This document shows, piece by piece, positions 49,257-64,000 of a stretch of DNA of 64,000 nt (positions within the stretch are counted from its first letter, which is position 1; each line of letters begins with the position of its first letter). The DNA is taken from NCBI GenBank assembly GCA_000004695.1, contig CM000151.3, forward strand, positions 6,272,001 to 6,336,000, written 5' to 3'. The notes beneath the pieces are model-generated. The model searched no databases. It saw only the letters and a program-made list of their open reading frames with translations, and had not been told where the DNA came from. A program made the translations under genes and the position numbers. The DNA is from Dictyostelium discoideum. Taxonomy: Eukaryota.

Positions 49257-52200
49257 TTAATCACTTGAATCACTTGAAATATCATCATCATCTTCTTCTT
49301 GTTCAGATTGTTCAGATTCTTGTAAACCATGTTGTTTTAATTTTTGTGAAGCATAATTTAAAGCCTCTTCGAAACGTTGAGATGGAGTTTCTTCATCAAT
49401 ATCTGATTCCTCTTGATTAGATTCTGTTTGTTTTTTCTTTGATTCATCGTCAGAGGTTTCAATATCTGAAGTATCTTGAGAAGGTGATTTTCTTTTTGGT
49501 GGTGATTTTTGTTTTGTGGTTGATTGGTCAGTATCTTTCATTTCAGTATCTGAAGTTTGTTGATTATTATCTTTTTCTTTTTCAATATTTTCCATTTCTT
49601 TATCTTGTGGTTGACTTGATTGACTTAATTCATCATCACCTTGTTGCTTAATGATACCACCAAAACGTATGAATCTCTCTTTTACTTGATTAAATTCAGC
49701 TGCTCTAAGAAGATATTCTTTATGAAGTTTTTCAAATATTTTCTTGTCATGTTTAAGTTTTTCAGAGGAATCAGCATTTGAATCTTGATTAGCCTCATCT
49801 TGAACCATTATAGCGCAGGCCTCTTCAGCTTTAGCCAAAGCTTTGAGAGCCCTCTTTTTAGCACGTTTAAATTCAAATGCGACGAGATGTTTATTTTCAG
49901 CAACACCCAAAACTGGTCTATCTTGATTAAACTCTTCTTCTGTAATACCTTGATAAGAGTAATCGAAAGCACTACCATTATCCAATTGTTTAATAACGTT
50001 AAGAGCATCTTCAGTTGAACCTGGTACTAACTTAGAACCACCTTTATTGAAAACAACAATCCAATTTTGATTAGCATCCATGACAAACTCTGGACCAAAA
50101 GTAGTGGCAATGAATTGAATCTCTCTTGAATGTTTACGAATCATCTTTGATACGGCTACTCTATAGTTATGATCGAGTGCAGCATCAATTTCATCTAAAA
50201 GATAGAATGGAGCAGGATCAGTACGTTGAAGTGCGAAAATTAAAGCCAAAGCTACCAAAGTTTTTTGACCACCACTTAATTGTCTCATTGAACATGGTTC
50301 ATGACCTTCACCAAATGAAACTTGAATACCAATACCAGTGAAGGTTAATAATCCTTTTGGAGTTTCACCATCGGCCCATTCTTTTGGATCTTCACCCTCG
50401 CCTTCATCTTCGTCCATTTGACGTTTCATTACTAATTTAGCACTGCCACCTGGAATCAATTCTTTAAATACTTGAGTGAAATTCTTTGCGACACCACTAA
50501 AAGTTCTAGCGATAGCTTCATCTTTTTTATTATCAAGTGTTTTAATAAGTAATTGAATTGAAGCATTGGATTCATAAAGTTCATCTCTTCTTGCCTCTAA
50601 ACTATTGTATTGATTTGTAAAACTATTGAATTGATCATTTGCTTTTTGATTTACATGTCTCAATGAAGCCAATGATTTATTGATCTTATTTAATTCTTCA
50701 ACTGATTGATCTTTATTATATTTCTTCAATTCTTCAAAATTGAATCTATCACCTTTTGATAGTACTCTTAGCTGTTTAGCATCTCTAACTTTATTAAAAC
50801 TTTGAATTTGTGCAAGGAGGGATTCCATCTTTTTACCATCGGCAACCAATTGATCAGCGATTGTAGAGGTTTGTTGTTTCAATGCATCGATTGATACTTT
50901 AATTGGTTTAATTTCAGCGTCTTTTTCATTCAATGATTGAACCAATGATTCTAATTTCTCACGAACACCATCAATCTCTATATTGATCTCATCGATTTCC
51001 TTTTGTTTAAGTTCAATTTGTAATTTAGAGTTTTCAGGATTAAGTGATTTAATCTCACCTTCGATTTCCATTAAACGTTTACCATAGTTTTGATTGAGTT
51101 GATTGGTCATTTGATTCTTTCTAGATTGAAGTTTCATAACGTCTGAAGAGATTGAAATCTTTTGTTCCTTTAATTGAATCGATGATTCACTCAATGTTAA
51201 AAGTAAATTACTCTCTTCTTCAGTTAATTTAGTATTGAATGCTGTATTGATTTGTTTTTGATAACCATCGATAGTATCTTTACAATTTTGAATATCAATC
51301 TTTAATTTCTTTAAGATGGTTTGTTTCTTCTCAAGAATTTCAATGTACATAGTACGTTCAGAGATGATTTTATCCAATTCCACTCTACTATTATCATTGT
51401 TTGATAAGATTTTATTCTTTTCATCCTCTTTGGTTCTAATGGTTTTTTGAATGGATAAAAGAGATGCTTGAAGTTTCTCCAATTCAGATTCCTTCTCAGT
51501 TAATTGAGTTTGAAGTTGTTGATATTGTTGACGCCAATGTTTAATTTGTTGATAACTAGAGAGTTTTAATTTCTTTTTACTATAGTAACCACCGGTTACA
51601 GCACCTTTTGAATGGAAAACATCACCTTCAAATGTAATACAATCGACATGACTTGATTTTCTAACTTGTTCAGCTGTGGCTTCATCTTTACAGATTAAAG
51701 TTTTACCAAATACCAATTTCATTGCCTCTGTATAGATTGGATCGAATGAGATCACCTTAATCAATGGACAAACTAAATCATTCTCTAGTATTGGGAATTT
51801 TGGTGGTTTAGTTCTTACACGATTCAATGGAATGAATGAAAGACGACCAATGTTTTCAGTGTTTAAGATCTCCAATATCTTTGAGGCGGTATCATCAGTG
51901 TCGACCACCACATGGAATAAACCATTGCCACCTACAACCTCCAATGCTAAAGTTGCCTCTGGCTCAACGATATCAAAGAGTTCAACCAATGGACCATGAA
52001 TACCCTTGATTTTACCCTCTTGTCTAATTTGATTCAATCTTGTCAAACCCTCACTCAATGGACGATTCATAATGGTTTGAAGGTTTCTTTCTGCTTTCTT
52101 CCATTCATTTCTATGCTCTGTTAGATTGGATTTCATTTCATTGATCGATTGGAAAGTTGAGGAAACTCGTTGTTCAATTTGATCTTTCTCCAACTTTAAT

Positions 52201-53661
52201 TCATGAACTCTCAATTCTGCTGTCTTTACAATCTCTGCTTCTTTATCTTTTGAAGCCATACTATTATCAAATTGTTTACCCTTTGATTGCTGAATTTGTT
52301 TCATATCCTCTACATCCTCCTCCAATGATTGAGCTTGTTGTTCATATTGGTTAACTATATCCTCAAGTTTTGAACTTTCATCACCCAAATATTTATCTCT
52401 CTCTGTCTTTGATTTAAATTGAAACATACCTTGTTTAACATACAATTCTTGTAAATTTCTTTCAGTACTTGACAATTTATTATCAATATCATCCTCTTGG
52501 CCTATTAACTCCTCTAGTTTTGGTTTAATGATTTCAATCTCTTTCTCTAATTTCTCTTTACTACCACTCAATAAATCTTGTTCCTTTTGTAACTTTTCCA
52601 ATTTAGCTTGTTCCTTTGATAATAACTTTTTAAAATGTTTTTGTTGTATAACTAATTGTGCTTTTTGTTTATCAAATACTTCATTTAATTTTTCTACCAT
52701 AATTTTTTCATTATCAATTTTTTTAATTTCACTTAAAAGTTTATTAAATTTACTTTCATCCTCTTTAAAAAGAAATAAATAATATTAGTATATATATAAA
52801 TTATAAATATTTAAAGTAATAAATAATAAATAAATAATTACTTTTTAATTCATCAGTAAATCTTTCTAATTTTTTAGATTCTTTTGAAGAATGAATTAAA
52901 TATTTTTCTTTTTCTTTTTCAAGATCTAGAATTCTATCATTTGATTCATTTGCTTCTAAATGAATGATATAGGCTTCAAATTGTTTTTTCATTTCAATTT
53001 GAGTTTGATATAATTGTAATTCTTTACGTTCTTTATCTAATACTTTGATACGTTCATCAATGTATTTTAGAAATTCTTCAATCTTTATTGATTTACTCTC
53101 AGACTCTATCATGATTGCAACAGACTCTCTCTTACGTTCTTCATAAACGGTTGCACCTGCTACCTCTTTTAACATATCCAATCTATCAGAATCTTTCATT
53201 AATGCTAATGTATTGATTTTACCTTGTTGTACGATATAGTATGGATTACTACTTGAGAAACCGGCTGCTTCAAACATATTTCTAACATCTGCTTTAGATA
53301 ATTTATTATTACCAATACTAAATTCATCTTTTGATGTACCAAATGTTCTACGTAATGAAAATTCAGTTTTATCAATCTAAAATAATAATAATAATTAGAG
53401 ATTATTTTAATTTTATTAAAAAAAAAAAAAAAAAAAAAAAAAACTTACAGGGAATCTATGATCACTATTATCAAATACAATCTCTACATAACCAGTTTGC
53501 ATTGTATTACCACCATAACTGTGTAATAGTTTTAATCTATCTTCTGAATTATTACCAACATTAAGATCACCTAATAGAAATCTAATTGCTGCAAATAAAT
53601 TACTTTTACCTGCACCATTTCTACCAGCTAGTATTTTATTTTATTTTATTTTTTAAATTAA

Positions 53662-53734
<73 letters not shown>

Positions 53735-53878
53735 GTAAAAAAAAGAAATATTATTATTATTTTTTTAATTTAAACTATACTTACTAACAACATTAAAACC
53801 TGGGTGTAATGTAATAGATGTAAAACCTTGATCTTTATAACTTCTAAAACCTTTTATAAATATGAATTTTATAAACAT
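49257..53878 (-). CDS. smc3: SMC3 (cohesin ATPase subunit) with a C-terminal acidic extension. Exons 53785..53878, 53449..53627, 52842..53376, 49257..52762; introns 53628..53784, 53377..53448, 52763..52841
   Basis: Exon 1 'MFIKFIFIKGFRSYKDQGFTSITLHPGFNVV' (~MYIKQVIIQGFRSY..). Exon 2 'TGRNGAGKSNLFAAIRFLLGD...VEIVFDNSDHRFP' (Walker A). Exon 3 'IDKTEFSLRR...FEAAGFSSSNPYYIVQQGKINTLA...LKEVAGATVYEERKRES'. Exon 4 carries an SMC3-type hinge ('GIHGPLVELFDIVEPEATLALEVVGGNGLFHVVVDTDDTASKILEIL', 'VFGKTLICKDEATAE', 'DCITFEGDVFHSKGAVTGGYY') and the signature 'LSGGQKTLVALALIFALQRTDPAPFYLLDEIDAALD'. All donors are GTAAGT/GTAATT and all acceptors ...AG; phases 1,0,1. Confidence 0.85.
53663..53733. repeat. 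(ATT)n microsatellite inside smc3 intron 1
   Basis: A perfect att repeat of ~23 units. Confidence 0.9.
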
Positions 53879-54633
53879 TTTTTTTTATAAATGAAAAAGA
53901 GAAAAATATTTATATATATAATATATACATATAATTAATTTTCTTTTTTTTTATTTTTTTTTTTTTCTATTTTTTTGAATAAAATGAAATTAAAATTATA
54001 AACGGATAAAAAATAAAAAATTCCAATGGAAAAAAAAAAAAAAATTAAAAAAAAAAAAAAAAAAAATTTGGCGCCAATTTCGTGGAAAATGAAAGAATTA
54101 TTGAAAAAAAATAAAGACAAAAATAATCCAATTCTATTTTTTTTTTTTTTTTTTTTAAAATTATATTTTATTTCTATTATTATTATTTTTTTTAAATTAT
54201 TATTTATTTTATTATAATTTTTTTTTAATAAAATTTTTAATTTAATTTATTATTTTATTTTTTTTTTGTTTCAAAAGATTGAAATAAATAATTAAAAAAA
54301 AAAACTATTTTTAAAATTTTATGTTTAAGGTATTTTGACTTTTTTTTTTTTTTTTTAATACTTGTAAATGTTGCTATTTCATATAATGTCATGTGATGTC
54401 AAAATACCTCTTCAAAAAAAAAAAAAAAAAAAATAAAAAAATAAAAAAATTTAGTTGGAAATAAATAAAAACAGAGTAATCAACCAGATATTTAAAAAGG
54501 ATTGATATCACGCAATGTTTTTGATAAAAAATAAAAAAAAAAATTTTTAATTTTTTTTTTCTAATTTTTTTTTTTTTATTTCAAATTTTTTTTTTTTTTT
54601 TTTTTTTTTTGTAATTTATTATTTTTTTTGTAT

Positions 54634-54671
<38 letters not shown>

Positions 54672-54679
54672 GTAAAGAA

Positions 54680-55530
54680 ATGGAAAAATTTCAAAGAGAA
54701 TTAACAGATCAAGCAATTAAAAAGATTGTTTCAACATTAAGATCAATTTTATATAGAATAGAAACTAAAGACTGTAAAGATGTTGTTGGTTTATTAGAAC
54801 CATATATGGATGAAGAATCTTATCAAAATATTAGAGAGACATTTTTAAGATATCAAGAGAAACATAGATTAAATGAATTTGCAGATGATGAAGAGGATAT
54901 TTTAGAAGATGAAGAAGAGGATGAAGATGAAGATAATATAAATAAAAATATAGATGATAACACCACCTCCACCACCAACAAATGTGGTGTTAATGGCATT
55001 GAAAATATATCAAATAAATATTTATTACAAATTCAAGATGTTGCAGCAAGATTGGTTTCATCATCAACTGCATCAGCATCAACTTCAAATGGTAGTGGTT
55101 CCAATGGTGAAAGTGGCACCACTCGTTATAATAGAATTGCAGATAGACAATCACGTGAAAATAGCTCACAAAGCTCAAATGGTGGTGGTGGTGGTGGTAG
55201 TGGTGAGAATGGCACACGTAAAAAGAGAAGAGGTGCTTCAAAGGGATTCCCATTGAATTGGGGTCTCATCATGTCAATGGCCTCAAATATCACACTCGAT
55301 CAAGTTCAATCAATGCTCAATGTACTCATTATGGTTTTATCTCGTACTCCAATCAACGTACTCTTCAAACAATTCCATGAATATAAATTCATCATCTCCT
55401 CTGTTTTCGATCTTTTAAATGCAATACTTCGTGGTGATATCAAAGATATTGGCACTTGTCTCATCATTGCTGTCATTGGTGTCATTCGTTTCTCTCAACG
55501 TAAAAATTTAACTTTAATTACAAGTATGTA

Positions 55531-55565
<35 letters not shown>

Positions 55566-55810
55566 TTTGTAATTTAAAAATAACTTTTTATTAATAAATT
55601 TTTAATTTTTTTTTTTTTTTTTTTTTTTTTTTAGCTTTGGAAGTTGCAAAATATCTTTACAATTCTGGTAACAAAAAGAAGTTTGGTTTAATCAGATCTG
55701 TTTCATTGGTTGCTTTCCTTTCCAACCTTTTCAAACTTGTAAATCCACCACCAGTAACTCCATTAGATGTTATACAATTAGTTAAATCCCAAATTCAATC
55801 AAGATTATAA
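54680..55810 (+). CDS. Hypothetical protein (~340 aa) with an acidic/Ser-Gly-rich middle and hydrophobic C-terminal segments. Exons 54680..55523 and 55635..55810; intron 55524..55634
   Basis: Real ATG (aaagaaATGgaaaaa). 'MEKFQRELTDQAIKKIVSTLRSILYRIETKDCKDVVGLLEPYMDEESYQNIRETFLRYQEK...'. Donor ..ACAA|GTATGT (phase 1). Acceptor t(n)AG|CTTTGGAAG gives '..TLEVAKYLYNSGNKKKFGLIRSVSLVAFLSNLFKLVNPPPVTPLDVIQLVKSQIQSRL*'. No family recognised. Confidence 0.55.
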
Positions 55811-55850
55811 ATCCTTCTTTTTTTTTAAAAAAAATAAAATAAAATAAAAT

Positions 55851-55883
<33 letters not shown>

Positions 55884-56016
55884 CAAATTTAAGAGATCCA
55901 TTTAAAAATAAGAAAAATAATATTAAATTTTAATAAAATCTTTTTTTAAAAATACCAAATTAGATTTATGAATTTGTGATTTATATATATATATTTTTTT
56001 TTTTTTCTTTTTTTAA

Positions 56017-56128
56017 AAAAATAAGTTTCCAATTGGTCGGGTATTCATCGACTTAATAATCTTAGAAAAAAGAAAAATAAGTTTCCAATTGATAGGGTAT
56101 TCATCGACTTAATAAACTTAGAAAACTA
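56017..56128 (+). promoter_or_regulatory. Two tandem ~55-bp direct repeats (period ~58 bp) plus further nested small direct repeats (56126..56265), 160-270 bp upstream of the paralogue A start codon
   Basis: 'aaaaataagtttccaattggtcgggtattcatcgacttaataatcttagaaaaa' (56017..56070) and 'aaaaataagtttccaattgatagggtattcatcgacttaataaacttagaaaac' (56075..56128). A third partial copy 'aaagtttccatag' is at 56171. 'aaagaatttagatttttaaaaa' occurs twice (56190.., 56243..); 'ctaaaattttta' occurs twice. Confidence 0.45.
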
Positions 56129-56287
56129 AAATTTTTATAAAAAAAAAAACTAAAATTTTTAAAAAAAAATAAAGTTTCCATAGAAAAAAAAAGAATTTAG
56201 ATTTTTAAAAAAAAAAAAAAAAAAAATATAAATAGTTAAAAAAAAGAATTTAGATTTTTAAAAAAAAAAAAACATTTTAATTTTAAA

Positions 56288-57647
56288 ATGTCTTCAAATA
56301 CTCAAACTGTTCCTATAAATCAAACTCAATTTTCACACCCTCCACCGCCTCCCAGTAATTTTGGTTGGATATTTGCATTATTTGGTGCTATAATTGGTAT
56401 TCCATCTTCAATTAGAAATTTAGCAATTAAATTGATTCTAACACTTATTTTTGTTCCTTTGCTAACAATAATTGCAATACTAAATCCATCATTACAATTA
56501 TATTTAACAGAAAGAAAGATTAGTATATGTTATTACTGGTCGTCTCCATGGTTTTGTACTTCCCCAAAACAACTTTTACCAATGAATTATAGTGTTATAA
56601 TTGATATTAAATCAATTTTGTCACTTAAAGATGGATGGGAAATAGTATCAGATGGTGGGCAATTTTCAAAAAAATTTTTAAACCAAGATGCTGAATATCA
56701 AAAAATATTAATAGCTATAACAGGGGATTATAATAGTGGTAAAACTTGGTTTTTAAATAATTTAGAGAATACTAATTATCAATCTTCATACCAAAATGCT
56801 ACACCTGCATTCTCATTTGTTGAATCATCAATTTCTCCCTATGTTTATATGGATACTCAAGGTTTAAAACGATTAGCATCTTCTTCAATTCGTGATGATA
56901 GCAGTAGACATAGTATCAAGGATATCAAAGCCCTTGATAGTTTGGTTTCAGATTCATACAATGTTCCTAGCATTATTTTTGAAGTTAGAGATACTGGTAA
57001 TAATGATGATTATTGTACTCAGGAACAAAGACATGAAGAGTATTTTCAAGATCAAGTTATTCCAAAAAAAGTTGTTGTTGTTCATAATTTTAAAAATTTG
57101 GAAACAATATCTGAAGTTGAAAAATACATTCGTGACGACATTATTAATCCTGAAATTGGGGGTCAATTAGTCATTAGTTCAACTCCAGGAACCATTGGTT
57201 GCCAATACTGGTATGTTGGTAGAATTTACCATTTCGTTGTTGCTAAAGGAGGATCAAAAGCAGGAAAATTTTATAACAAATGTACATTTGATCTCATTAG
57301 ATCAACTATTCTTACCAATCAAGCTTATGTACCAAAAATAAATATTTTAAATTCTCTCATAATAAATATAGAGCAATCTCTAAGAAATAATTTAAGAGAT
57401 CCAAATTTACCAAAAGATGGATTTGTAAATGTAAAGAAGGATTCATGGAAACTCTTTAGTTTTGTAAGAAATATTTATAATCAATTTTCTTCCAAACCAG
57501 ATCCTGATGAACCAATTGACATTGAAACTAATCCATTTAAATTAATAATAGAAAATAACAAAATTAAATTAACCAACTCTTCATTTGATTTGGAATTTGC
57601 TTTTAAAGATAGCTGTGGATTTAAAAATATTGATTTTAATCCACAAG

Positions 57648-57688
<41 letters not shown>

Positions 57689-58094
57689 TTTATAGATTTT
57701 ATTTCTCAAACATATTAAATACCACTAACTAATTCAATTTTATTTTTTTTAGTGTGACGTAACTTTTAATGAACTTGAAAATAATTTCGGAATTACATGT
57801 GATCTTCCAAATTCATATATAAACTGGAGTTGCTCAAAAAACAATCCTAACATAGTTTTTCTCTATTATGAAAGAAAATCTCCAACATATTCAACCTCAC
57901 ATATTAAAAATAAAATTAATCGTAGAACATATATTAAACATAGAAAATATTTTGTAATTCCAACAAAGCATTGGATTACTTGTAAAAGTTTAATTTCAAC
58001 TGCTGTATATAAAGATGGTACTGCCCATGTATCACTCTCTGAAGATAGTACTGTTGTTGCTGGGTCTCCATTCCCAAAAGATGATAATAATTAA
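56288..58094 (+). CDS. Paralogue A of a tandem family: N-terminal TM segment + GBP/atlastin-like P-loop GTPase domain (exon 1, 56288..57646) + C-terminal HSP20/alpha-crystallin-like exon (57753..58094); intron 57647..57752 rich in (ATT)n
   Basis: TM: 'FGWIFALFGAIIGIPSSIRNLAIKLILTLIFVPLLTIIAIL'. G1 'ITGDYNSGKTWFLNNLEN' (GxxxxGKT followed by LxNxL as in GBP/atlastin), G3 'YMDTQGL' (DTQG as in atlastin), G4-like 'IIFEVRDTGNN' (RD motif of GBP/atlastin). Donor CCACAA|GTAAGT and acceptor t(n)AG|TGTGAC are in phase 0. Exon 2 'CDVTFNELENNFGITCDLPNSYINWSCSKNNPNIVFLYYERKSPTY...RRTYIKHRKYFVIP..ISTAVYKDGTAHVSLSEDSTVVAGSPFP' fits the alpha-crystallin pattern F..D.P....(ISFY)ER...R..G.F.R.F.LP...........DGV..V..PK. 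Confidence 0.7.
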
Positions 58095-58313
58095 AATTAA
58101 AATTTTAAATAAACTAAAAATTCAAATAAATTAAAAAATATAAAAACAATAAAATTTAAAAAAAAAAATAAAAAAAAATGTGTAAATTTTTATTTTTATT
58201 TTTTTTTTTAAAAATTAAAAATTTGATTTAACCAACTTTAATATTAATTTAAATTTTTAATTTAATTTATTATATCAATAATTAATCATTTGATTTGGTG
58301 TGGGTCTTGGTCA

Positions 58314-58344
<31 letters not shown>

Positions 58345-58430
58345 AAAAAAGCCCAGGTTCTATATAAACAAAATTTCTGAATTTGCAAATTTATAGTAGC
58401 TCTAACAGGTGATTACAACTGTGGTAATTA
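58345..58430 (+). pseudogene. Degenerate ~85-bp relic of the P-loop-encoding segment of the GTPase family, in the A-B intergenic region; a second, weaker relic lies at 58678..58725
   Basis: 'gcccaggttctatataaacaaaatttctgaatttgcaaatttatagtagctctaacaggtgattacaactgtggtaa' aligns to gene B 59440..59522 ('..ggtagccagtttgcatctatgtttgtaaatcaacaatctgaatactcaaaattattagtggcattaacaggtgattacaacagtggtaaaac'). 'aaagcccaggtggtattttataaacaaaattaattctgg' at 58678 repeats its 5' part. Confidence 0.55.
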
Positions 58431-59144
58431 ATTTAGAAAAAAAAAGAATTATAAATTTCTAATTGTTGATGGTTTGGAAAAACCCAAAAAAAAAAAAAAA
58501 AAAAAAAAAAAAATAAATCTGTTTCTCTTAGTAAAAGTTCCCATTTTTTTTATTTCTCAAATTTATGAAATATTTTTTTTAAACTCATTTCTTAAAAAAC
58601 AAAAATGCTAAATTTTCCATATCTGCCTTATCTATTATATTTTTTGTTTTTTATTACCTTTTAAACTTTTTTTTTTAAAAAGCCCAGGTGGTATTTTATA
58701 AACAAAATTAATTCTGGTGTATCGAAAACTTAACTTAATAAAATATATTTATGCATTTAATTTAAAATCTTTATCTCTTTTTATTTTTTTATTTTTTTAT
58801 TTTTATTTTTGTTTTTTTTTAGTTCCAAAATAAATAAATACAGATAATTGATCACCATATTAAAAACATTTGAATTTTTAATAAATTTTTTGTAAAATTT
58901 TACAATAATTCTTTTTAAAATCCCATCAAAGTAGCTCGGAATTATCTAAATAATTTTTTTTTTTTTTTTTTTTTTTTTTCGTAAAAAAATAAGCATTTAC
59001 AAGATATTTGTTATTGATCCAAAAATTTTTTTAAAAAAAAATAATTTTTAAAGCAATCTTTTGAAAAAAAAAAAAAAAATTTCAAAGCAAACTTTTGAAA
59101 AATAAAAAAAAAAACGAAACCAAACAAGCAGTATAACATTTAAA

Positions 59145-60882
59145 ATGCCTGATTCTCCTCTCACTGAACCTCGACAGCCTCCACAGCCTCCACAGCCTCC
59201 ACATTTTTTAAGCTGGAGAAATTTTTTAAGCTTTAGAAAATTTATAAGCTGGAAAAATGCTTTTTTAATTTTAATTCCAATTTTATTAGCGATAGGAATA
59301 GGAAACTATGAACAAATAATTCAATATTCTTCTGGCCCTATATTTATTGAAAAATTTGATCAATATAATGTTATAATTAATATTAAATCCATTTTGGCAA
59401 TAAAAGAAGGATGGGGAATAACAACCGATGGTAGCCAGTTTGCATCTATGTTTGTAAATCAACAATCTGAATACTCAAAATTATTAGTGGCATTAACAGG
59501 TGATTACAACAGTGGTAAAACTTTTTTGATCAATAACTTGGAAAACAAGAATTTCCCATCTTCATATCAACATGCAACACCTGCATTTGGGTTTATACAA
59601 TCATCAATTTCAGATTATATTTATATGGATACTCAAGGTTTGAAAAGATTAGCATCATCTTCACTTGATTCCGATAGGGGTACCCATAGCATCAAGGATA
59701 TCAAAGCCATTGATAATTTAATCTCTCAGTCTTATAAAGTTGCAAATTTAATTATCGAAGTCAGAGATACAGGTAACAATGAGGATATTTGCAATACTCA
59801 ACAAAGACATGCCGAGTACCTCCAAGATAGCAAAGCCAATGGATATCAAATCCCTGTTATGGTTGTTGTTGTCCATAACTTTAAAAACATGAGAACCGTT
59901 GCTGAAGTTGAAAAATATATTCGTGATGATATTACAAATCCAGAAATCGGTGGTCAAGAAAAAGAAGTTGATTCAAAAACTGGAGATAAAAAATGCAAAT
60001 ACTGGTATGTTGATAGCGTATTACATTATGTTATTGCCCAAGAAGGCTCTGAAGCTGGTAAAGTTTATAACAAATGTACATTTGATCTCATTAGATTAAA
60101 AGTTTTACAAGATCAAGGTGGTATTCCAAAAGTCAACTTTTTAAATAAACTCACTCTGGTTATGGAACAATCTTTAAGAAATTATATTAAAGATCCAAAT
60201 GTATCAAAAGATTCATTTGTAAGAGTAAAGAAGGATGAAACAATCGTTAGTTATGCAAGTTATCTCAAGTCTTTTTTTTCTTCCAAATCAGATCCTGAAA
60301 AACCTGATCAACCTACCCTTATTGAATCACATCCATTCAAAGTTTCAATACAAAATAACAAAATTAAATTGGTTAACTCTACTTTTGATTTACAATTTTC
60401 TTATAAAGATTGTTGTGGATTTAAAAACATTGATTATTCTCCACAAGTATGTATTATTATTATTTTTTATTTTTTTTATTTTTTTATTTTTCAAAAAAGA
60501 TATCAATTACAACATACTAATTAAATTTTATTATTATTTTAATTTTTAGTATGATGTAATCGAAACTTCAGATTCTTTTTCAATAGTAGTTGATGCACCA
60601 AATTCAATTGTCAATTGGTTTTGCTCGCCAAGTGAATCACACACAATTAGTTTTTATATTGAAAGAAAATTCCCAACATATTTAAGTTCTCATCTTAGAA
60701 GAAATATTAATCCAAGAACATATGGTGAAATCAAGAAAGAGTTTCAAATTCCATCTAGACCATGGATTGACTGCCTAAGATTAATTCCAACTGCTAAATA
60801 TATAGACGGTGTAGCATTTGTATCACTAACTAAAGATAGTACTGTTATTGGTGGTTCTCCATTTCCAGAAGATAAAAAATAA
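59145..60882 (+). CDS. Paralogue B (TM + GBP/atlastin-like GTPase + HSP20-like C-terminal exon). Exons 59145..60446 and 60550..60882; intron 60447..60549
   Basis: 'MPDSPLTEPRQPPQPPQPPHFLSWRNF..', TM 'AFLILIPILLAIGIG', 'LVALTGDYNSGKTFLINNLENKNF', 'YMDTQGLKRLASSS', 'NLIIEVRDTGNNED', 'VVVVHNFKNMRTVAEVEKYIRDDITNPEIGG'. Donor CCACAA|GTATGT, acceptor ..ttttAG|TATGATGTAATC. Exon 2 '..VDAPNSIVNWFCSPSESHTISFYIERKFPTYLSSHLRRNINPRTYGEIKKEFQIPSRPWIDCLRLIPTAKYIDGVAFVSLTKDSTVIGGSPFPEDKK*'. About 60% aa identity to paralogue A across the GTPase domain. Confidence 0.7.
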
Positions 60883-61169
60883 TATTTTTTAAATTGATTA
60901 AATAAATAATAAAAAAAAAAAATAATAAAAAAAAATAAAATAAAATAAAATAAAAAAAAAAAAAAGTAATTATTAAATTACCCTTTATTGTATATAATAA
61001 AATTAATAAATCTAAAAGGATTGGTTTGATTTTTTTTTTTTTTTTTTTTTACTTTTTTTTTATTTTCATAACAACTCCCCTTATTTTTATTTTTTTATAA
61101 TTAAAAAAAATTTGGTTATTAGTGATAGGTGATCTCTATTTTTGGATTTTAAAAAAATAGTGTTTTTCC

Positions 61170-61189
61170 TTTATCCATTTTTGGATAAA
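61170..61189. promoter_or_regulatory. Perfect 8-bp inverted repeat TTTATCCA-tttt-TGGATAAA (two opposed GATA-type cores) ~350 bp upstream of pseudo-paralogue C; a further TTTATCCA is at 61206
   Basis: Seen directly at 61170..61189. TTATC/GATAA is the core recognised by GATA zinc-finger factors. Confidence 0.3.
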
Positions 61190-61534
61190 AAGTATCTTTT
61201 TAGATTATCTTTATCCATCCTCATTTTTTACCCTTTTGAAAATTTTTTTTTTTTTTTTCAAAGATATTTTTTCAATCATAAAAAAAAGTGTTTTAATTTT
61301 ATTAACTAATGTTTTTTTTAAAATCTAATCAAATTTTCCAAATTATATTATTTTTTTATTAAAAGATATTTTTTCAAAAGATATTTGTTTTGATTAAAAA
61401 TTTTAAAAATAAAAAAAAAAAAAATTTTAAAAATTGTTTTTTTTTTTTTAAGACAAAAATAAGATTTTATTTTTTTTTTTTTTTTTTAAAAAGTAAAAAA
61501 ATTTTGAGACTGATTCAACAGTATTATTTTTAAA

Positions 61535-62801
61535 ATGTTACCGCAATCCATGTCTCCTCCCTCTCAACCATCAGGGTTTTATCCCTCTCAACAGCCTGAA
61601 TCTTCTTCCTCTCAAAGTCAACCAAATCCTCGTATTTCAGAATCACAATCTAAGTCTTCTTCCTCTAAAATCCAATCTCATAATTATCTGAGCTGGAAAA
61701 ATTTTTTTTATTTTATTTCAATACTTTTAATTTCAATTTTCACATCAGTATTTTTAGTTGGGAATTTATATCCAGAGTATCAACCATATACTCCATTTCT
61801 TTGGCAGCCTATTTGCATCTATGTTTATAGACCTACAATCTGAATACCCAAAATTGTTAGTGGCATTATCAGGTGATTACAACAGTGGTAAAACTTATTT
61901 GATGAATAAGTTAGAAAACAAGAATTTCCAGTCGTCATATCAATATGCAACACCTGCATTTGGATTTATACAATCATCAATTTCAGATTATATTTATATG
62001 GATACTCAAGGTTTGAAAAGATTAGCATCATCTTCACTTGATTCCGATAGGGGTACCCTTAGCATCAAAGATATCAAAGCCATTGATAATTTAATCTCCC
62101 AAACTTATAAAGTTGCAAATATTATTATTGAAGTAAGAGACACAGGTAACAATGAAGATATTTGCAATACCCAACAAAGACATGCCGAGTACCTTCAAGA
62201 TAGAATAACAAGTGAAAACCAAATCCCTGTTATGGTTGTTGTTGTCCATAACTTTAAAAATTTAAAAACAATATCTGAAGTTGAAAGATACATTCGTGAT
62301 GATATTACTAATCCTGAAATTGGTGGCCAATTAACAGTTAGTTCAAAACCTGAAACCAAAGGTTGCAAATGCATGTTGATAGCATATTACATTATGTTAT
62401 TGCCCAAGAAGGTACTGAAGCTGGTAAACTTTATAACGAATGTACATTTAGCCTCATTAGATTAAAAGTTTTACAAGATCAAGGTGGTATTCCAAAAGTT
62501 AACTTTTTAAATAAAATCATTCAAATCATGGAACAATCATTGGGAAGTTATATTAAAGATCCAAAAGTATCAAAAGATTCATTTGTAAGAGTAAAGAAGG
62601 ATGAAACAATTGCAAGTTATTGGGGTTCTTTTTTTTCCAAAACGGAACCTGAAAAACCTACTCTTGTTGAAACACATGAATTTAAAATTACAATACAAAA
62701 TAACACAATTAAATTGATTAACTCTTCTTTTGATTTAGAATTTTATAAAGATAGTTGTGGATTTAAAAGCATTGATTATTCTCCACAAGTAAGTATTATT
62801 A

Positions 62802-62887
<86 letters not shown>

Positions 62888-63278
62888 TTTTCGATTTTAA
62901 TTTTTTAAAAAAAGATATTAATTACAATACTAATCTAATTTTTATTTTTAGTATGATGTAGTTGACAAACCAGATTTTTTTTCAATTGTATATGATGCAC
63001 CAAATTCATATGTACAATGGCTTTGCTCACAAAATAATTCTCACATAATTGTTTTTCAAAGTGTAAGAAAATTCCCAACATACTTACGTTCTGATCTTAG
63101 AAGAAATATTTATCCAAGAACATATGGTAATAACAAAAAAGAGTTTCAAATTCCATCTAAACCAGGGATTGACTGTGCAAGATTATCTGTGACTGCTAAA
63201 CATATAGACGGTGTAGCATTTGTTTCTCTCGCTAAAGATAATAATGTTATTGGTGGTTCTCCATTTCCAAGAAGATAA
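61535..63278 (+). pseudogene. Paralogue C of the GTPase/HSP20-like family, disrupted by a ~100-bp internal deletion and a 4-bp indel (three reading frames); the 3' exon 62952..63278 is still intact
   Basis: The ORF track splits it into 61535..61843, 61758..62465 and 62363..62908 in three frames. Nucleotide alignment to paralogue B shows loss of the segment encoding 'IFIEKFDQYNVIINIKSILAIKEGWGITTDGSQ' (between ..tatactcc and ggcagcc.. at ~61790..61812). At ~62375, C has 'tgcaaatgcatgttgatagca' where B has 'tgcaaatactggtatgttgatagcg'. The intron (62790..62951, long (ATT)n) and the HSP20-like exon are conserved ('YDVVDKPDFFSIVYDAPNSYVQWLCSQNNSHIIVFQSVRKFPTYLRSDLRRNIYPRTYGNNKKEFQIPSKPGIDCARLSVTAKHIDGVAFVSLAKDNNVIGGSPFP'). 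Confidence 0.65.
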
Positions 63279-63651
63279 AAAATAATAATTTTAAAATAAA
63301 AAATAATAAATAAAAATAAATTTGAACAATGTAAATTAAAAAAAAAAAAAAAGTAATTTTTAAATTACACTTTATTATATATAATACAATTAATAAATAA
63401 ATAAATGGTCTGGTTGGGTTTCTTTAATTTTAAAGTTTTGTTTTTGATTTTTTTTTTTTTTTTTTTTTTTTTTTATTTGGAATTACATAATGTTACAACC
63501 ACCACCGTTTGCACAAATTAAAACACCCATATTCACAGTTATGTTATTTTTTGTTTGATTCGAAATTTCATTATTTACATTATTAATTTCAATATTGTTT
63601 TTTATATTATTGGTATTTGAGTTTATTGAAGTAATTGATTCTAAGTTTTTG

Positions 63652-63687
<36 letters not shown>

Positions 63688-64000
63688 AGAAATAATAATT
63701 TTAATTTATAATCAAAAATTTTTATTAAGCACTACTTACTAATAATAGTCATTTTATATGTATATTGATATTACAATGTTTTTTTAGTGTTACAAATATT
63801 TAAAATTATTACAATTTGATGTTTAGTATTGTTATTTATAAAATAAAAAAATGATTTCAATTTTTTTTTTTTATAATAAAATTTTTTAAAATAAAAAATA
63901 ATTAAATAATTAAATAAATAATAAAATACATATTTTTTTTTAAAAAATTTATTTAATTAATTAAATATTTAAAAATTAAATAATAATTTTATTTTTTTTT

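Follow-up and report, generated by a model that had tools for sequence, protein, structure and literature searches.

Copy C, the third of three tandem paralogues on the forward strand of Dictyostelium discoideum AX4 chromosome 2, is very probably a non-processed pseudogene that was recently broken by deletions of 113 bp and 4 bp. Its loss appears to be polymorphic and to belong to a wider turnover of the gene family. The DNA analyzed was a window of 64,000 nucleotides (nt), and coordinates given below are positions in this window unless another locus is named. The three paralogues, found by protein search, open reading frames (ORFs), and tblastn, stand in the order A, B, C; copy C occupies 61535–63278 (exons 61535–62788 and 62952–63278) and corresponds to DDB_G0276095, which is annotated as protein-coding in AX4.

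The syntenic locus was compared across seven other assemblies, among them ACTFIT (locus L002), ACTFIR (L001), ACTFIW (L008), ACTFIZ (L003), and ACTFIY (L004). ACTFIR is labeled D. discoideum, ACTFIY and ACTFIZ are labeled D. cf. discoideum, and D. citrinum is represented by two strains. An intact copy C, of the kind that an initial annotation of this DNA had suggested looking for in other assemblies, was found in ACTFIW. It encodes a protein of 563 amino acids (P0021), which is the exact one-intron translation of L008 10001–11787, and paralogues A and B of the same assembly are also continuous. The ACTFIW model P0022 (951 amino acids; L008 5359–9292) merges A and B; both look separately intact by tblastn, and the merged model is an annotation artefact.

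AX4 C shares 95% nucleotide identity and the intron position with the intact ACTFIW allele. In exon 1, it differs from this allele by a deletion of exactly 113 bp after 61804 and by a 4-bp deletion (TCTG) after 62370. AX4 C has further, in-frame differences of 18, 3, and 9 bp. In the ACTFIR and ACTFIW alleles, ..DLSINRNFKVFKYDEHTVIIDIKSILAIREGWEIKTDG.. is encoded by the 113-bp piece. An imperfect direct repeat, TGG(G/C)A(-/G)CCTAT, flanks the 113-bp junction and leaves a 3-bp ambiguity in its placement; this repeat suggests that the deletion arose through slippage or a microhomology-mediated event.

Both lesions had been described in the initial annotation from comparison with paralogue B, as a deletion of about 100 bp and a 4-bp indel. 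Global alignment of B and C gave 86.1% identity over aligned columns, in line with the claimed value of more than 85%; against B 60001–60004, C had a 4-bp gap, and a patchwork of gaps ran across the diverged N-terminal third. This third is by far the most diverged part of the A, B, and C paralogues; in 75-column windows, nucleotide identity between B and C was 47–56% there and 76–100% elsewhere in the gene. The smaller indel was thus recovered at exactly 4 bp. The larger deletion is real as well and its size could be fixed at 113 bp against ACTFIW, but it cannot be cleanly delimited against B because the N-terminal third of the two paralogues is too diverged.

Spliced C is 1581 nt long, a multiple of three, and is read in the frame order 0, +1, 0; as 113 + 4 = 117, the two frame shifts cancel and frame 0 is restored. 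The three overlapping ORFs over which the GTPase exon had been said to be split (61535–61843, 61758–62465, and 62363–62908) were all present in the mechanically generated ORF list. By tblastn, the G-domain core (61803–62384) and the following part of exon 1 (62372–62788) fell in different frames, and exon 2 was clean.

The start-frame segment (61535–61804) encodes a Ser/Gln/Pro-rich N-terminus and a hydrophobic, presumed transmembrane stretch (FFYFISILLISIFTSVFLV, coded from about 61703). At the 113-bp deletion junction (61802–61807), CCATTTCTTTGG is joined directly to CAGCC after 61804. Translation from the ATG at 61535 gives 90 native and 12 out-of-frame residues, 102 in total, before the TGA stop at 61841–61843. 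The normal start codon would now yield just this fragment; an exact look-up of the 102-residue ORF in public assemblies, made in search of transcript contigs, returned none.

The G-domain core follows in frame +1 (61805–62370) and carries Walker A GDYNSGKT at 61872–61895, DTQG at 62001–62012, and HNFKN at 62247–62261; this frame stops at 62463–62465. At the 4-bp deletion junction (62368–62373), AAAT meets GCATG, where intact alleles read AAATTCTGGCATG, encoding ..CKFWHVD... The rest of exon 1 (62371–62788) is read in frame 0 and contains the conserved ..HYVIAQEGTEAGKLYNECTF.. motif and a linker. The sole genuine intron of C (62789–62951; GTAAGT...TTTTTAG, GC content 6%) and exon 2 (62952–63278), a single uninterrupted ORF of 108 codons plus stop, are both as clean as initially described. 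Copy C combines two features of a non-processed pseudogene: homology and a retained intron position on one side, and disabling lesions with the first stop at 61841–61843 on the other.

A different lesion was observed in ACTFIR, an assembly about 92–97% identical to the window in which A and B are intact. Its copy C, 94.3% identical to AX4 C, is without the 4-bp deletion and retains the 113-bp stretch. It has instead lost 77 bp equivalent to 61818–61894, the Walker A codons included, and differs from the ACTFIW copy C only by this deletion and 6 mismatches. The lesions of the two strains are thus independent. When the missing pieces were restored in silico, uninterrupted ORFs of 565 amino acids on the AX4 backbone and 563 amino acids on the ACTFIR backbone were obtained. 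With an intact allele in other individuals, represented by ACTFIW P0021, C corresponds to a polymorphic pseudogene, read across about 5% divergence and with the species label being that of GenBank.

The selection history of the copies was evaluated as the ratio of non-synonymous to synonymous substitution rates (dN/dS), calculated by the Nei–Gojobori method for AX4 and ACTFIR orthologues. Copy C gave a dN/dS of 0.387 (dS 0.099), copy B 0.395 (dS 0.102), and copy A 0.457 (dS 0.121), and the counts of non-synonymous and synonymous changes were alike across the copies (Fisher p = 0.6–1.0). For C, the bootstrap confidence interval was 0.24–0.63, and the synonymous excess over the neutral expectation had p = 4e-4. 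Derived changes on the AX4 branch of C, polarized with B, comprised 11 synonymous and 11 non-synonymous substitutions, compared to a neutral ratio of about 1:3.8. Between AX4 C and the intact ACTFIW allele, dN/dS was 0.35, and no stop codon was present in the intact register.

Relaxed constraint would bring dN/dS near 1; the values of C, 0.35–0.39, were instead equal to those of A and B. Purifying selection therefore acted on C as it did on A and B for nearly all of the time since the genomes split. The unrelaxed ratio is best read as a mark of very recent lesions rather than of function, and C was, on this reading of the sequences, broken only a short time ago, in separate events in the AX4 and ACTFIR lineages. 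What remains of C would still look like coding sequence because there has been too little time for further decay. Together with the intact ACTFIW allele, these results support the young pseudogene proposed initially.

Some changes in AX4 C lie outside the two frame-shifting deletions. In exon 2, a 9-bp in-frame loss directly precedes the stop codon, and GGG (Gly) was found at 63165–63167, where all other copies, including C of ACTFIR and ACTFIW, have TGG (Trp). Within the alpha-crystallin-like domain, this site is part of the conserved P-W-I motif; the substitution is possibly damaging and may be the first sign of decay after inactivation. The intron of C contains an (ATT)31 array at 62794–62887 that is missing from the ACTFIR and ACTFIW alleles, in which the intron is 96 bp shorter. 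The 5′ part of this (ATT)n “third intron” of C has been named as the source of a gained intron in DDB_G0275263 (PMC4683709), a match that may reflect mere microsatellite likeness.

The initial annotation had further attributed C to a recent duplication, and this part of the claim was contradicted. A neighbor-joining tree was built from 1188 core columns of 12 copies. Clade A (AX4, ACTFIR, ACTFIY, ACTFIZ), the D. citrinum clade, clade C (AX4, ACTFIR), and clade B (AX4, ACTFIR, and the second copy of ACTFIY) each received 100% bootstrap support, and the second copy of ACTFIZ joined clade B at 93.5%. Copy C stood outside the group formed by B and the B-like D. cf. discoideum copies. Faster evolution of C is unlikely to explain this position, as B and C are about equally far from D. 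citrinum (0.25–0.27).

The dS between B and C was 0.15–0.22, compared to about 0.10 between AX4 and ACTFIR orthologues. In ACTFIY, a remnant of C was found downstream of the B copy, consisting of a P-loop piece (L004 13409–13476) and a 3′ end piece (L004 13853–13901). The tree and this remnant together indicate that C arose before D. cf. discoideum split off and was lost in that lineage afterwards. Judged from these comparisons, C is an old copy that was long kept under selection and died lately, independently in at least two lineages.

A within-strain pattern in which B equals C was observed at 5 sites, with a small shared-site cluster at 61968–62057, compared to 157 sites fitting orthology. 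Concerted evolution is therefore negligible: the paralogues evolve independently, and orthologues cluster in the A, B, and C clades with 93–100% bootstrap. Gene conversion from B as the cause of the constrained appearance of C was rejected on the same counts.

Copy number and condition varied among the relatives. D. citrinum (both strains) had a single intact copy. D. cf. discoideum had two copies, partly or fully disabled, and a relic of C, and D. discoideum had three copies and one relic. In ACTFIZ, A is intact, and the B copy (L003 10638–12463) carries a 56-bp deletion after the P-loop together with frame changes. In ACTFIY, the A copy is interrupted by a TGG to TGA stop and has also suffered a large internal deletion and a mutation of its acceptor. 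A large deletion and a stop within exon 2 disable the B copy, and only two fragments remain of C; every family copy at this locus (L004 9611–13901) is disabled. Small lesions in the new assemblies may include homopolymer errors, but the large deletions cannot. Independent losses have thus affected C in both AX4 and ACTFIR, B in ACTFIZ, and all copies in ACTFIY, and the family as a whole looks dispensable from these genomes. The birth-and-death mode of evolution that had been suggested is supported by this variation in copy number, by the relics and differently disabled copies, and by the clustering of orthologues; the loss of C would be one part of this wider turnover of the tandem family in the D. 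discoideum group.

Three other explanations of the state of C in AX4 were weighed. Sequencing or assembly errors in the reference have practically no likelihood as the origin of the frame breaks. The region is AT-rich and a long ATT microsatellite lies nearby, but neither lesion falls within a repeat or homopolymer, and a loss of 113 bp is atypical for a base-calling error. Compared to 51508–64000 of the window, ACTFIT showed 0 mismatches and 9 indels in 12.5 kb, all of them homopolymer-length differences, and its copy C was identical to AX4 C over all 1744 bp. As ACTFIT was assembled independently from the same lineage, the breaks are not assembly artefacts, which settles a doubt that the initial annotation had raised. 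It is also very unlikely that the reference annotation is correct and that C is a four-exon coding gene from which two new introns (61632–61830 and 62396–62460) are spliced. This model (DDB_G0276095 / XP_643278 / UniProt Q75JI8; P0008) is annotated as protein-coding, and its 438-amino-acid product was reproduced only by exons 61535–61631, 61831–62395, 62461–62788, and 62952–63278. It shares with C the locus, the start codon, the last intron, and exon 2, and adds two introns that are not credible. Both begin with GT and end with AG, their removal leaves an open frame, and C is without excess non-synonymous change, all of which would be expected of a coding gene. Their GC content, however, is exon-like: 27.6% for the 199-bp “intron 1” and 36.9% for the 65-bp “intron 2”, compared to about 31% in exons and 6–11% in the true introns of the three paralogues. 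Both are continuous coding sequence in ACTFIW, and the second is so in ACTFIR as well. Splicing would cost the protein its N-terminal hydrophobic helix with “intron 1”, and “intron 2” cuts out the family-invariant A..GS.A...YN motif (A298, G301, S302, A304, Y308, and N309), the best conserved one in the family. Given DNA identical to that of P0008, the ACTFIT pipeline placed its junctions elsewhere to get across the breaks (P0004, 500 amino acids). Both introns are, to judge from their sequence, annotation patches over frameshifts. The P0008 and P0004 models both stand in public databases as real proteins.

Hardly more likely than the four-exon gene is a broken allele that is still useful, either through a truncated protein (the hydrophobic N-terminal peptide of 102 residues, or a C-terminal half that is translated from an internal start and carries the alpha-crystallin-like domain) or as a conversion donor with B. 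No further lesions are present in exon 2, at the splice sites, or in any of the three frame segments, and the B/C cluster of shared sites at 61968–62057 would suit a donor. The absence of further decay, however, is expected of a young pseudogene anyway, the conversion pattern is confined to 5 sites, exon 2 of AX4 C has lost a tryptophan that every other copy retains, and C has disappeared from D. cf. discoideum by outright deletion. Recent inactivation by the two deletions is thus preferred, and from it we infer that the AX4 allele makes no functional product; what is said below of the role of the protein is of the same nature. Several points weigh against this interpretation. A dN/dS similar to that of intact copies is also expected of a gene that is still functional, and some residual function may persist, for example, in a truncated product starting at ATG 62369 and comprising the C-terminal half and exon 2, or in a regulatory RNA. 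ACTFIT possibly represents the laboratory lineage of AX4 itself, so that its identity rules out assembly error and is silent on wild populations. At this locus, ACTFIW and ACTFIR diverge from AX4 by about 5%, and polymorphism within the species rests on the species label in GenBank.

Before its inactivation, copy C, a duplicated gene, will have encoded a protein of about 563–565 amino acids, with one N-terminal hydrophobic, presumably membrane-spanning helix, a P-loop GTPase domain, and a C-terminal beta-sandwich of alpha-crystallin type. Along the family sequence, the single hydrophobic helix is followed by a VIIDIKSIL..EGWEI..DG block, Walker A GDYNSGKT, DTQG, an invariant HN(F/L)K in place of NKxD, and the invariant ...A..GS.A...YN motif. 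Walker A (GxxxxGK[ST]) and the G3 motif (DxxG) are present in A, B, and C as GDYNSGKT and DTQG, and the family alignment shows no variation at G119, G124, K125, D162, and G165. The strand equivalent to G4 ends in HN(F/L)K (H244, N245) and not in NKxD.

The only Pfam match was MMR_HSR1, below threshold, with 21.5 bits for B and 16.8 bits for A compared to a cut-off of 21.9. The full-length AlphaFold model of B was poor, with a predicted local distance difference test (pLDDT) value of 52; blocks of the G domain ranged from 42 to 88 and were best at residues 240–320. The G-domain model nevertheless matched Sey1p, MnmE, HflX, GIMAP2, Rab/Arf, and GBP1 in Foldseek (E about 1e-4, probability 1.0), and on this model the domain has the fold of a P-loop GTPase of TRAFAC type.

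The domain encoded by exon 2 was modeled on the sequence of paralogue B with an alignment that included C. Alone, it yielded a seven-stranded alpha-crystallin-like beta-sandwich with a pLDDT of 74. Of the top 50 PDB matches, nearly all were alpha-crystallin domains of small heat shock proteins, with E values from 5e-3; the best were 3w1z, 5ds1, 6ewn, 3gla, and alphaB-crystallin, with target-normalized TM-scores of 0.45–0.66. In contrast, exon 2 of B or C matched no Pfam family at E ≤ 10, HSP20 (PF00011) included, and the best hit of a profile search of PDB sequences reached only E = 1.7 (HspA, 6ewn). The HSP20-like character assigned to this exon initially therefore stands as a fold, based on the structural matches, but not as family membership, as no sequence method returned HSP20. 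The domain resembles the small heat shock protein alpha-crystallin domain (PF00011) in its modeled fold and differs from it in being fused to a GTPase rather than free-standing.

Protein searches returned full-length relatives from no species other than D. discoideum, D. cf. discoideum, and D. citrinum; distant relatives of about 25% identity occur in environmental data (ENA assemblies). Supplementary RNA-seq tables show paralogue A to be upregulated with Bacillus subtilis (log fold change 2.73, adjusted P 1.6e-7) and with Klebsiella pneumoniae (log fold change 1.36, adjusted P 0.0045) (PMC7078664). For B and C, no expression values were found in the papers and the parts of the supplementary tables that were searched. 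The dictyBase entry for paralogue A reads merely “putative transmembrane protein”.

Paralogue A (DDB_G0276097; 56288–58094, exons 56288–57646 and 57753–58094) is an intact gene encoding 566 amino acids. Paralogue B (DDB_G0276219; 59145–60882, exons 59145–60446 and 60550–60882) is likewise intact, and its spliced product of 544 amino acids matched DDB_G0276219 at 100% in the protein search. The syntenic gene order comprises an SMC gene, a gene for about 340 amino acids, the paralogue array, a gene for about 800–970 amino acids, and a glycoside hydrolase 15 gene.

A relic of a further family copy, a 52-nt fragment of the P-loop region, lies on the forward strand between A and B (58376–58427) and shows 83% identity to B over 53 nt (E = 1e-8). 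A matching relic occupies the same intergenic place in ACTFIY (L004 11312–11387), and the relic is therefore old. About 420 bp around it (58350–58770), bordered by AAAAAGCCCAGGT repeats at about 58346 and 58687, have no counterpart in ACTFIR. Other repeats were noted at both intact genes. Two lie in the N-terminus of B: a coding tandem repeat of 18 bp (FLSWRN / FLSFRK / FISWKN; 59203–59258) and a 9-bp CCTCCACAG repeat (59169–59203). A 34-bp tandem repeat (AAAGCAAACTTTTGAAA...) lies upstream of B (59033–59125), and a 56-bp tandem duplication lies upstream of A (56017–56125).

The phenomenon itself is ordinary and will not surprise a specialist; copy C is a cleanly documented gene death. In humans, segregating pseudogenes such as those of olfactory receptors and CASP12 provide loci at which intact and disabled alleles coexist. 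Copy C resembles them in its coexisting alleles, its small frame-shifting deletions, and its limited secondary decay. It differs in that its alleles come from genomes about 5% diverged, and in that two different null alleles arose independently. The locus offers an example resolved to the base, with an intact allele, two independent nulls, and a fully deleted state in sequenced relatives, and it is useful as teaching or test material for pseudogene callers.

The AX4 reference can also be corrected, as DDB_G0276095 is better described as a pseudogene with two invented introns. Models of this kind contaminate protein databases and studies of intron evolution; the introns of DDB_G0276095 have been used as data (PMC4683709). 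Beyond the wrong reference annotation, the intact allele and the second null allele, together with the piecemeal loss of the family in the species group, are what the comparison adds.

The vertebrate IRG, GBP, and GIMAP families are immunity-related large GTPases that form tandem arrays and follow birth-and-death evolution. The amoebal array resembles them as a tandem GTPase array with lineage-specific copy number, pseudogenes, and relics, in which orthology is kept rather than concerted evolution. Its modeled G domain matches GIMAP2, GBP1, and Sey1p among generic GTPases, and its paralogue A is induced by bacteria (PMC7078664). In contrast to those families, it combines a hydrophobic helix and a G domain with an alpha-crystallin-like domain, and the comparison is one of likeness rather than of sequence membership. 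By analogy, the array might be a fast-turnover, dispensable, and bacteria-responsive counterpart of IRG, GBP, and GIMAP in amoebae, whose repeated inactivation would stem from shifting microbial selection and not from redundancy, although we consider this rather unlikely. The results draw attention to a small, lineage-restricted family of GTPase and alpha-crystallin-like fusion proteins that appears dispensable in at least one strain and of which one member is induced by bacteria.

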